Part shown: one piece after another, positions 39,499 to 42,285 of the stretch
Position numbering within the stretch: the stretch's first letter is position 1
Layout of the letters: each line of letters begins with the position of its first letter
Source of the DNA: Pseudomonadota bacterium
GTDB taxonomy: Bacteria; Pseudomonadota; Gammaproteobacteria; Burkholderiales; Rhodocyclaceae
DNA length: 64,000 bases
NCBI GenBank assembly: GCA_029776255.1
Contig: JAKOTN010000078.1
Coordinates: forward strand, 1,860 to 65,859
Reading direction: 5' to 3'
Translations under genes and position numbers: made by a program
The notes under the pieces: generated by a model
Told to the model about the DNA's origin: nothing
Seen by the model: the letters and a program-made list of their open reading frames with translations, nothing else
Database searches by the model: none

Positions 39499-40323
39499 TC
39501 ACTTCATTTCCGGCGACACCGCCAGCACCGTGCGCATCAGAAACGCATCCAGTTCGGCGGCGTCGCCTTCCGGCCTTTTGTAATCGGCATCGACAACGGC
39601 TCTCGCCAGTTCGCTTTCGATAAAGGAGTGGATACGCGGCCAGCGCGGGCTGTATCCGGCCTCGTCGGCGCGCATCTTGATTGCCAGCAGGGCGTTGATT
39701 TCGTCGAGCAGCGCCGCGTCCGTCACCAGATGCCCAGCCAGATCGGCGAAGCGCATCGGCGGCTGGCCGAGGCCGCGTTCGATCCACTGCGCCGCGAGCA
39801 GCGGACGCAGCACGTAGAGGTACTTTTTCAGGCGCACGCTGTCGCCCTGCAAGTAGCCGCGAAAGTTGCGATGCGCCATCGCCAGGTAGTGATAGCGCCC
39901 GCGCCTCGGCGAAAACCACTGCGTCGCCAAGGTCCGAATTTCGGTGCTCAACGCCTCGTATTGCCGATAAATGACCGGCGAATCGAGCCATTCGAGCAGC
40001 ACCGGATTGGCCCGCCGCAACAGACGCAGCGCCTTGCGCAACTCCCAGCCACCGACATCCAGTTCGTCGCTGATCGGCAGTTCGATCACGTCGCGCTTCG
40101 GCTCCACGGCGAGATACCAGGGCAGGCGATGGACATAGAGAAAACGCACGTCGTAGTCGCTGTCCGGCGACGCAAAGCCCCAGCCCCGACTGCCGGACTC
40201 GCAGGCGTAAAGCACCGTCACGTCATGCGCCGCCTCGATGTCGGCGAGCGCCTGCATGACGCGCTGGCGGATCGCCGGGTCGATGAGGTGGACGCTCAGT
40301 ACTTTTTGTTTTTCGGTTTCCAT
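39499..40323 (-). CDS. RNA-repair-associated pol-beta-fold nucleotidyltransferase (RlaP/YcgL type)
   Basis: ACESGSRGWGFASPDSDYDVRF, WELRKALRLL...NP.LLEWL.SP, VRLKKYLYVLRP. Confidence 0.82.
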   Translation of the reverse strand: METEKQKVLSVHLIDPAIRQRVMQALADIEAAHDVTVLYACESGSRGWGFASPDSDYDVRFLYVHRLPWYLAVEPKRDVIELPISDELDVGGWELRKALRLLRRANPVLLEWLDSPVIYRQYEALSTEIRTLATQWFSPRRGRYHYLAMAHRNFRGYLQGDSVRLKKYLYVLRPLLAAQWIERGLGQPPMRFADLAGHLVTDAALLDEINALLAIKMRADEAGYSPRWPRIHSFIESELARAVVDADYKRPEGDAAELDAFLMRTVLAVSPEMK

Positions 40324-40336
40324 GATGTTGTCTAAC

Positions 40337-40442
40337 GAAGCTGTAGAAAAAATAGTTTTCCGTAAGCTGATTGTTCGTAACTCATTGAATAATAGATATA
40401 TACATTGGCACAAATGACCGTTTTGGGGTTTTCTACAGCTTC
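40337..40442. mobile_element. 106-bp MITE-like element
   Basis: 14-bp perfect TIRs GAAGCTGTAGAAAA (40337-40350, 40429-40442), AAC duplicated at 40334-40336 and 40443-40445, 37/106 GC by hand count. Confidence 0.75.
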
Positions 40443-40529
40443 AACGTTGTAGATAAGAGGATCTGCGCGGAGCTTTATCGAGCATCGCCCAGCGACCGAA
40501 GGGAGCGGCCTTGACCACGATCGTTAGAC
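40443..40529 (-). mobile_element. integron attC recombination site (R' core interrupted by the MITE)
   Basis: minus strand GTCTAAC (R'') - GGTCAAGG (L'') ... TCTTATC (L') - TACAAC - GTT|AGAC (R'); the barstar stop TAA lies inside R''. Confidence 0.75.
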
Positions 40530-40812
40530 ATACGCGACCTTTGACGCGAATTGTGGATACATTTTTGCCATATCGGTTAAGCACTTATTCATAAGCATTG
40601 CCTCCCCCTGGAAGGCGTAACTCAAACCCAGCCCAGCCTTTGAATTGAAGTATTTCTGGCATCGCAACCAGCACCGTGATTGCGTCCCAAAAAGCGTTCC
40701 AGTTGCAGCCGTACCAGCCTGGAAAATCAAGTTTTTCCATTAGTAAGTGGTGCAATTCAACGGGGGTTTGAACAGCGGATAAATCAATGATGACGCATGC
40801 GCTGCGAGCCAT
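40524..40812 (-). pseudogene. barstar-family (RNase inhibitor-like) cassette gene with a +1 frameshift
   Basis: IIDLS.V....LH..L...LDFPGWYGCNWNAFWDAIT; the C-terminus GEAMLMNKCLTDMAKMYPQFASKVAYV continues in another frame after a G5 run. Confidence 0.75.
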
Positions 40813-41064
40813 ATGAATGTCTAACAGTTCCGTCTTGCCCGAACGTAGGGCCTCCAAAGCCTCGAACCCGGTCAACAATTCAGCCGTACTTTGAGGTTGA
40901 TGCAGGCTGACTCCGGTTTTTTGCTCAACCAGATCAATGATTTCCTCGCGATCGACTCCAAGCTTATTCGCAACATGAAGGGCGCAGGAGCGTGCATGAG
41001 ATGCCCGATGTTTCAAAGGTAAGGATTCATCCTTGACCCGGTTACTGTTTGAACTGAATGACAT
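40585..41064 (-). CDS. AT-rich ORF of unknown function (84 codons) read in frame into the barstar gene
   Basis: ATG 3 nt after the rtcB stop, with AAGGA upstream; no recognisable motif in the first 84 aa. Confidence 0.45.
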   Translation of the reverse strand: MSFSSNSNRVKDESLPLKHRASHARSCALHVANKLGVDREEIIDLVEQKTGVSLHQPQSTAELLTGFEALEALRSGKTELLDIHMARSACVIIDLSAVQTPVELHHLLMEKLDFPGWYGCNWNAFWDAITVLVAMPEILQFKGWAGFELRLPGGGNAYE

Positions 41065-41067
41065 TTC

Positions 41068-42285
41068 CTATCCTTTCACACAAACCACCTGCCGCAACGT
41101 ATGCACCACTTCCACCAGATCGCGCTGGGCGTGCATCACGGCGTCGATGTCCTTGTAGGCCATCGGGATTTCGTCGATCACCTTGCTGTCCTTGCGGCAT
41201 TCGACGTGGGCGGTGGCCTTGATTTGATCGTCCACGGTGAAGCGGCGGCGGGCTTCGTTGCGGCTCATGGCACGGCCGGCACCGTGGCTGCACGAGCAGA
41301 AGGCGTCCTCGTTGCCAAGGCCGCGCACGATGTAGCTGCGGGCGCCCATCGACCCCGGAATGATCCCGAGTTCGCCCTTCTTCGCCGACACCGCCCCCTT
41401 GCGGGTGACCAGTACCTCGGCCCCGAAATGGGTTTCGTGCTGCACGTAGTTGTGGTGGCAGTTCACCGCCTCGGCGTCGGCCGTGAACGGCTTGGCGACG
41501 ATCTGGCGGGCGGCGGCGATCACGTTCGCCATCATCACGTCGCGATTACGGCGAGCGTAGTCCTGCGCCCAACCCACGGCTTCCACGTAATCGGCGAAGT
41601 GCGCGGAGCCTTCCTCGAAATAGGCCAGATCCTTGTCCGGCAGGTTGGCGATGTGCTGGCGCATGTCGGCCTGAGCCAGTTCGATGAAATGGCTACCAAT
41701 GGCGTTTCCCACCCCGCGCGAACCGGAATGCAGCATGAACCAGACCTGATCGGCCTCGTCCAGGCACACTTCGATGAAGTGGTTGCCGGTTCCCAGCGTT
41801 CCAAGATGCTTGTAATTGTTTGTATTTATCAGGCGCGGGTACTTCTCCGTGATGCGCGCGAAGCCCGGCGACAGCACAGACCACATGGCGTCGACGGCGT
41901 CCGGCGGGTTTTCCCAGGAACCCTTATCGCGGCGACCGCGGGTCATCGTTCGCCCGTGCGGCACCGCCACCTCGATGGCCGAACGCAGACCGTGCAGATT
42001 GTCCGGCAGATCGCCGGCGGTCAGCGTGGTGCGCGCCGCCATCATCCCGCAACCGATATCGACGCCGACCGCCGCCGGGATGATCGCGCCCTGCGTCGGG
42101 ATCACGCTGCCGATGGTCGAGCCTTTACCGAGATGCACGTCCGGCATCACCGCCAGGTGGCGGAAGATGAACGGCATTCGGGCCGTGTTCATCAGCTGTT
42201 TGCGGGCGTCGTCCTCGACCGGCACGCCTTCGGTCCACAGCTTGATCGGCTTGCCGTCGGTCACGTCTTGTACTTGATACGTCAT
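41068..42285 (-). CDS. rtcB: RNA-splicing ligase RtcB
   Basis: AVMPDVHLGKG.TIGSV, VGVDIGCG, GTLGTGNHFIE, HSGSRG, HHNY, IPGSMG, SHGAGR, DEIPMAYK. Confidence 0.96.
   Translation of the reverse strand: MTYQVQDVTDGKPIKLWTEGVPVEDDARKQLMNTARMPFIFRHLAVMPDVHLGKGSTIGSVIPTQGAIIPAAVGVDIGCGMMAARTTLTAGDLPDNLHGLRSAIEVAVPHGRTMTRGRRDKGSWENPPDAVDAMWSVLSPGFARITEKYPRLINTNNYKHLGTLGTGNHFIEVCLDEADQVWFMLHSGSRGVGNAIGSHFIELAQADMRQHIANLPDKDLAYFEEGSAHFADYVEAVGWAQDYARRNRDVMMANVIAAARQIVAKPFTADAEAVNCHHNYVQHETHFGAEVLVTRKGAVSAKKGELGIIPGSMGARSYIVRGLGNEDAFCSCSHGAGRAMSRNEARRRFTVDDQIKATAHVECRKDSKVIDEIPMAYKDIDAVMHAQRDLVEVVHTLRQVVCVKG

Follow-up and report, generated by a model that had tools for sequence, protein, structure and literature searches.

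The window analysed here, a bacterial DNA stretch of 64,000 nucleotides, contains an RNA-repair operon in which the attC site of an integron gene cassette is interrupted by a short segment with inverted ends. What is this segment, and how did it come to lie inside an attC? On the minus strand, the order is a Band7 gene, rtcB, a 159-aa ORF (41064-40585), the attC with its inserted segment, RlaP and rtcA; rtcR is divergent.

We began from the anatomy of the segment. It occupies 40337-40442 on the minus strand, is 106 bp long with a GC content of 34.9%, and its end GAAGCTGTAGAAAACCCC faces the attC body. An inverted-repeat search identified two terminal arms, given here on the plus strand: GAAGCTGTAGAAAA at 40337-40350 on the RlaP-proximal side and TTTTCTACAGCTTC at 40429-40442 on the attC-proximal side. 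The arms are 14 nt each, are 100% complementary and lie 78 nt apart. In the window, the 14-mer is present only at these two sites; the expected number of occurrences, with up to two mismatches, is 0.10. The element is flanked by AAC at 40334-40336 and at 40443-40445, which is GTT on the cassette strand. Read on the minus strand, the first copy of this target-site duplication (40443-40445) is joined to the attC body and the second copy (40334-40336) is followed by AGAC, the rest of the R′ core. An earlier sequence-only reading of this DNA had described a 106-bp element of 35% GC with perfect 14-bp terminal repeats, AAC on both sides and the motif TATTAT in an AT-rich interior on the minus strand; our recalculation gave the same values, and the motif is present. 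The same reading had allowed for a 4-bp duplication, AACG. The 4-bp reading is not supported, because only GTT is duplicated at insertion sites where the preceding base is not C (for example, loci L135 and L141). Elements of the lineage described below always begin with G and end with C, and the ambiguity arises because C precedes GTT in 72 of 77 targets. Within the 106 bp there is no ORF that reaches 50 aa, and the element is therefore too small to encode a transposase. The element and its location are identical in 11 contigs from independent assemblies. Thus, an assembly artefact is ruled out.

The interrupted site extends from 40330 to 40529 on the minus strand. Its R″ core is GTCTAAC (40529-40523), and its R′ core consists of GTT (40445-40443 or 40336-40334) and AGAC (40333-40330). 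Accordingly, the minus strand reads GTCTAAC, the attC body, CTACAAC-GTT, the element, and then GTT-AGAC-AACATC-ATG, where ATG is the start of RlaP. When the element and one AAC are removed, the minus strand becomes ...CTACAACGTTAGACAACATCATG: the rejoined CTACAAC-GTTAGAC restores GTTAGAC, the exact complement of R″, as had been predicted. In the rejoined site, R″ (RYYYAAC) and R′ (GTTRRRY) are inversely complementary and paired in the fold, in which TGTCTAACG pairs with CGTTAGACA. Outside the element, the site can be aligned over its full extent with a family of attC repeats that occurs at many loci in genomes of the same genus (16 attCs of related genomes); the closest copy, in G027, reads ...CCTACAACGTTAGAG and is uninterrupted. 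An nhmmer profile of this family matches the window attC (C130:42300-42384 in the host assembly) and detects at least 14 sites, spread over 10 contigs, in the host genome. Three of the matches (C127:7019, 7943 and 9398) adjoin an integron-integrase gene (C127:5289-6227), which is intact (TIGR02249, 494 bits). Judged from its sequence and predicted fold, the split site is a genuine attC, and both the rejoined site and the attC alignment bear out the proposal that the insertion lies precisely in the GTT of the R′ core. The further expectation was that empty sites read GTTAGAC; in related empty attCs, the corresponding sequence is GTTAGAG or GTTAGGC. No empty allele of the same locus was found, since all 11 contigs with the fusion ORF also have the insertion; the relatives at L163 and L166 are without the whole cassette.

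The host genome has further attCs of this family. C127:5289-9637 carries the intact integron integrase and at least three attCs up to the end of the contig; other attCs lie at the ends of contigs, and sites are also found on C71, C88, C139, C159, C60 and C61. The picture suggests a chromosomal integron, the cassette array of which has been broken up in the assembly. None of these attCs has the element. Judging by the names of cluster mates, the host may be an Azonexus-like member of the Rhodocyclales.

Because attC sites do have variable central regions, we considered whether the segment could be a native variable part of this attC, or simply a chance inverted repeat. This explanation is scarcely credible. 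The element is located in the R′ core and not in the central loop, and the 16 related attCs and a homologous Barstar cassette are without it. Moreover, the 14-mer pair is far past chance, and the same ends recur in more than 100 other contigs.

What is the cassette that carries this attC? The cassette (TTAGAC...G) spans 40445-40824 on the minus strand and consists of the 5′ sequence TTAGACATTCAT, a Barstar-family ORF (40585-40812, minus strand, Pfam PF01337), which is truncated by a frameshift, and the attC. Upstream, at 40826-41064 (minus strand), lies what was originally the N-terminal extension of RlaP; it aligns with residues 1-80 of the 367-aa RlaP P0091, also with P0004/L163, and is now fused in frame to the cassette ORF. 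The 159-aa ORF is therefore chimeric: residues 1-80 form a conserved small domain and residues 85-159 belong to the Barstar family. In close relatives, the small domain is the N-terminal extension of a 367-aa RlaP (P0091, L166; also P0004, L163). The RlaP core of 274 aa (39499-40323, minus strand, Pfam PF10127, 316 bits) has been cut off from its N-terminal extension by the cassette; its start is now an internal ATG (40323), situated 13 nt past the second GTT copy. The upstream gene of the operon is rtcB (41068-42285, minus strand, Pfam PF01139, 432 bits). The upstream junction is G|TTAGAC at 40825|40824, and GTTAGAC (40825-40819) lies 6 nt ahead of the Barstar ATG (40812). When the flanks of the cassette are joined, the frame is open into RlaP. 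Furthermore, a homologous 95-aa Barstar cassette with an intact attC is present in a metagenomic cassette array (L164). The in-frame flanks, the junction and this homologue together indicate integration of the cassette at a secondary site, located in the RlaP linker. With its Barstar ORF and attC, with G|TTAGAC on both sides, with its interruption of a chromosomal gene and with its distance from the integron integrase, which is on a different contig, it is an instance of the known secondary-site cassettes and lone attCs outside integrons. These likenesses concern the target of the element and not the element itself.

The Barstar ORF has a +1 frameshift in the G-run at 40604-40608, which is GGGGG here and GGGG in L164. 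The frameshift costs about 24 residues; Barstar homologues end with ...KVxYA, and the other frame continues to a TAA inside R″. The 159-aa product is found on at least 22 contigs, which excludes an assembly error as the cause of the frameshift. Cassette, frameshift and inserted element form one allele that is identical in 11 contigs from independent assemblies, and is thus real and fixed in the lineage.

The slot just after rtcB varies among relatives. For example, an unrelated low-GC ORF of 298 aa follows rtcB at L004 (G004:C105, 597-1493), where only a remnant of RlaP is present, and a HEAT-like gene of 470 aa follows rtcB at L166 (1074-2486). In G076, rtcB and RlaP are about 45 bp apart.

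We then asked which mobile element the inserted segment derives from. Related ends occur after the GTT of attCs in three other genomes (G043, G027 and G074). In G074, an autonomous element of 1780 bp with the ends GAGGCTGTAGAAAA and GACGCTGTAGAAAA and GTT/GTT flanks lies within an attC. It encodes a transposase of 510 aa with DUF772 and DDE_Tnp_1_6 domains (PF05598 and PF13751), which scores 275.1 bits against the NF033551 IS1182 model (cut-off 270). This narrow margin fits a divergent subgroup of the IS1182 family. A flank-neutral pattern, GANGCTGTAGAAAAACCC, was scanned over 185,579 species genomes, and at least 120 contigs were hit, which come from many Beta- and Gammaproteobacteria and from a few other phyla. 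Among at least 129 ends, the outer flanking triplet is GTT in 79, AAC in 40 and a different one in 10; thus 119 of the 129 listed ends have GTT or AAC, a flank expected by chance in about 3%. The GTT/GTT duplication is present in 48 of 51 paired ends among the matches listed. These 48 comprise 22 elements of 1.74-1.97 kb, with which one element of 2.9 kb was counted, and 26 short elements, mostly of 100-223 bp. The 22 long elements carry transposase genes of 503-543 aa, some of which are broken. A Pseudoalteromonas element, whose transposase is 42% identical to that of G074, also lies in the GTT of an attC with GTT duplicated.

The targets of these elements have a common sequence. The logo shows C at −14, TT at −11 and −10 and A-rich positions −9 and −8; GTT itself is preceded by C (−1) in 72 of 77 cases and followed by A (+3) in 38 of 39 and by G (+4). 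These positions correspond to the L′ box, the spacer and the R′ core of an attC, and the window site agrees with the logo at every informative position. Two further comparisons gave enrichment with considerable noise: a complement of R″ with at most one mismatch was found at 20 of 42 target sites and in 17% of controls (a noisy 7-mer test), and GTT was paired with an upstream AAC in the minimum-free-energy fold at 19 of 41 sites and in 37 of 204 controls (also noisy). Because these tests are enriched but noisy, the attC identity of the targets rests on the logo and on the direct alignments. The earlier suggestion of a non-autonomous IS derivative aimed at attC cores is thus supported: the window element shares its ends, its duplication and its target with the IS1182-type elements, and nearly all other copies among the matches listed lie in the GTT core of an attC.

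The orientation of the transposase gene relative to the attC was also compared. In the full-length copies (loci L037-L156), 13 genes are sense and nine are antisense. The N-terminal motif MARYKxIDTxPRF is present in all nine antisense copies, and all 13 sense copies have other N-termini. Orientation therefore looks fixed within subgroups, with two classes and not one, as classes of sequence that carry no claim of monophyly, the backbone of the transposase tree being without resolution. Multi-copy arrays are present in genomes other than the host; for example, L042 and L053 each have three to four copies.

The insertion point is also the crossover triplet of the integron integrase. For this reason, the 109-bp unit from GTT to GTT might be regarded as an ORF-less integron cassette, in which the apparent duplication would be two integrase crossover points, since G|TT delimits every cassette. 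GTT together with the element end gives GTTGAAG, which is near the R′ consensus GTTRRRY, and an intact IntI is encoded in the genome. However, the unit has no attC of its own: 40337-40442 shows no arrangement of R″, L″ and L′ and has simple terminal inverted repeats only, and its ends are those of elements that encode a DDE transposase. In addition, tandem elements with a common GTT (L045 and L076) fit re-targeting by a transposase. We regard the ORF-less cassette as very unlikely. The tandem elements are an observation in their own right: at L045 817-1254 and L076 1-242, two elements stand back to back with one common GTT (for example, ...TTCTACAGCCTC GTT GAAGCTGTAGAAAAACCC...). Because they share GTT, the duplicated triplet beside a resident element is still a target. 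This arrangement suggests that one attC flank is sufficient for recognition.

Taken together, we consider it highly probable that the window element is a MITE of an IS1182-family DDE lineage specific for the GTT of attC, and that it was inserted in trans into a Barstar cassette at a secondary site. It has inverted repeats matching at 14 of 14 positions and AAC on both sides, and autonomous elements with the same ends exist, namely the 1780-bp IS of G074 and 22 further full-length copies; as for multiple copies per genome, a usual feature of MITEs, it is a single copy in its own genome. A search of that genome for a second copy found none, and the 24 matches to the ends with at most two mismatches are about the calculated chance number. 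Nor was a cognate transposase found in the host genome, where only a 30%-identical IS1182 fragment, on C25, was detected. The check that had been proposed, for an autonomous partner and other copies in the host genome, thus turned up neither; partners are found in other genomes only. Among 100 relatives searched for copies, only a 74%-identical partial match in G043 was detected. The single close relative is this 107-bp element of G043, with 68% identity over the full length and the same orientation, and a metagenome scan for the 106-bp subtype returned the G043 locus alone. Between its ends, the only sequence that the MITE resembles is that of the G043 element; its membership in the lineage is given by the 14-bp ends, the duplication and the target. 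Because the host genome contains neither a partner nor a second copy, the MITE is here an immobile relic.

In G043:C5, a second element end (…TTTTTCTACAGCGTC GTTAGAG) is located at the start of the contig (L035/L002, 1-100), about 650 bp upstream of the 107-bp MITE (728-834). Two neighbouring attCs have therefore been struck. The contig probably breaks inside a repeated IS.

What does the insertion do to the cassette and to the operon? What it certainly changes is the structure: the attC body now runs into GTTGAAG and is cut off from the AGAC half of R′, which is 109 nt distant. In single-strand folds of both strands, a three-way junction is predicted in which R″ is paired with the displaced R′ and the arms of the MITE form a side hairpin; overall, these folds are no better than those of shuffled sequences (z about −1). 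GTT and the end of the element would also recreate a GTTGARG pseudo-core, and on a reading that we think rather doubtful the integrase might then still mobilize cassettes, whether or not the passenger goes along. A cassette that stands alone at a secondary site, without an upstream attC or attI partner, would already be poorly excisable. Because this cassette has no upstream partner site, the idea that the MITE locks it in place is largely moot, and such locking would add little.

The MITE might instead have been retained for the sake of the operon, either as an outward promoter for RlaP-rtcA or as a hairpin in the RNA, by which read-through from rtcB would be modulated. In favour of such a role, the element is rich in AT, the RlaP start is 13 nt downstream and all 11 independent contigs have it unchanged; moreover, outward promoters have been documented in group IIC-attC introns (PMC3001079). 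Nevertheless, we consider a role in the operon unlikely. An RtcR-independent promoter for RlaP-rtcA had been suggested for the AT-rich interior, but a consensus scan of 40100-41200 detected no sigma-70-like site, and a separate scan detected no −35/−10 pair with at least 8 of 12 matching positions. In 40100-41200 there is also no intrinsic-terminator-like site, and the element has no Rfam match. Furthermore, the flanking 195 nt are as invariant as the MITE (0-1 mismatch over 301 nt). Because the flanks are invariant, the identity of the MITE among contigs reflects a young clonal allele and not selection on the MITE.

Returning to the MITE inserted in trans, we propose the following course of events. 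The transposase of the lineage would recognize the 3′ end of attC, namely the L′ box, the spacer and C-GTT-AG, and a staggered 3-bp cut by this DDE enzyme at the GTT of the R′ core would give the duplicated GTT. At the locus described here, the host integron integrase may initially have set the Barstar cassette at G|TTAGAC, in the linker of an N-extended RlaP between rtcB and rtcA. Subsequently, a transposase acting in trans, which was later lost or was never resident, would have put the MITE into the attC of the cassette, and the Barstar gene would then have gained its frameshift. In this scheme, the present state is an immobile MITE relic that is fixed in the lineage.

How does this lineage compare with known elements? 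The partners pass the NCBI IS1182 model, have DUF772 and DDE domains, are about 1.8 kb long and possess short terminal inverted repeats, as in the IS1182 family; the transposase of G074 is at most 28% identical to named IS1182 elements on plasmids such as ISPmo1. Within this family, palindromes are said to be the target of some members, and the staphylococcal IS1272/TnSha1 enters DNA that can form hairpins (PMC4923244). IS1272/TnSha1 does not select a primary sequence; its insertion removes part of the hairpin and leaves the target without a duplication (PMC4923244). In contrast, insertion by the present lineage is directed to a defined triplet in a single class of site, with the register fixed, and gives a clean 3-bp duplication. 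The IS1111-attC group of the IS110/IS1111 family (ISPa21, ISPst6 and ISKpn4) homes to one end of attC (Tetu & Holmes 2008 and Post & Hall 2009, as cited in PMC11187229 and PMC12444791). Its DEDD transposase is guided by a seekRNA, and its repeats are subterminal and not terminal (PMC11187229), whereas our lineage has a DDE transposase, terminal repeats, a 3-bp duplication and abundant MITE derivatives. Membership of the IS1111-attC group was rejected, because the partners encode DDE transposases of the IS1182 type and have terminal repeats. Group IIC-attC introns are attC-specific retroelements with a ribozyme and a reverse transcriptase (PMC3001079). Unlike these introns, the window element has neither an ORF nor an Rfam match.

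Our search of the full-text literature brought to light no account of an attC-targeting IS1182-type element or MITE. The elements compared here form a widespread IS1182-type lineage with near-exclusive insertion into attC GTT, and we found no publication that describes it. A bolder reading joins these points: the lineage would be an undescribed, deep and widespread third kind of attC-specific element, whose insertion leaves the site alive so that the transposon rides the traffic of cassettes. We offer this joint reading only tentatively and think it rather doubtful as a whole.

The cassette arrays of integrons are a major route of gene exchange, including the exchange of antibiotic resistance genes. 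In the literature that we searched, the parasites described as specific for attC are of two kinds: the IS1111-attC elements and the group IIC-attC introns. A conventional DDE lineage that strikes the crossover triplet, with many MITEs in Beta- and Gammaproteobacteria, would shape the mobility of cassettes and the stability of arrays. Furthermore, it would provide a natural example of a DDE enzyme that selects its target by structure or sequence, and it would be a source of systematic mis-annotation of attC sites. The instance in the window is itself an inert relic; what makes it of interest is the lineage to which it belongs and the place where it was found: an element of this kind can reach a lone cassette outside an integron, in an RNA-repair operon, and persist there as a fixed relic after loss of the transposase.
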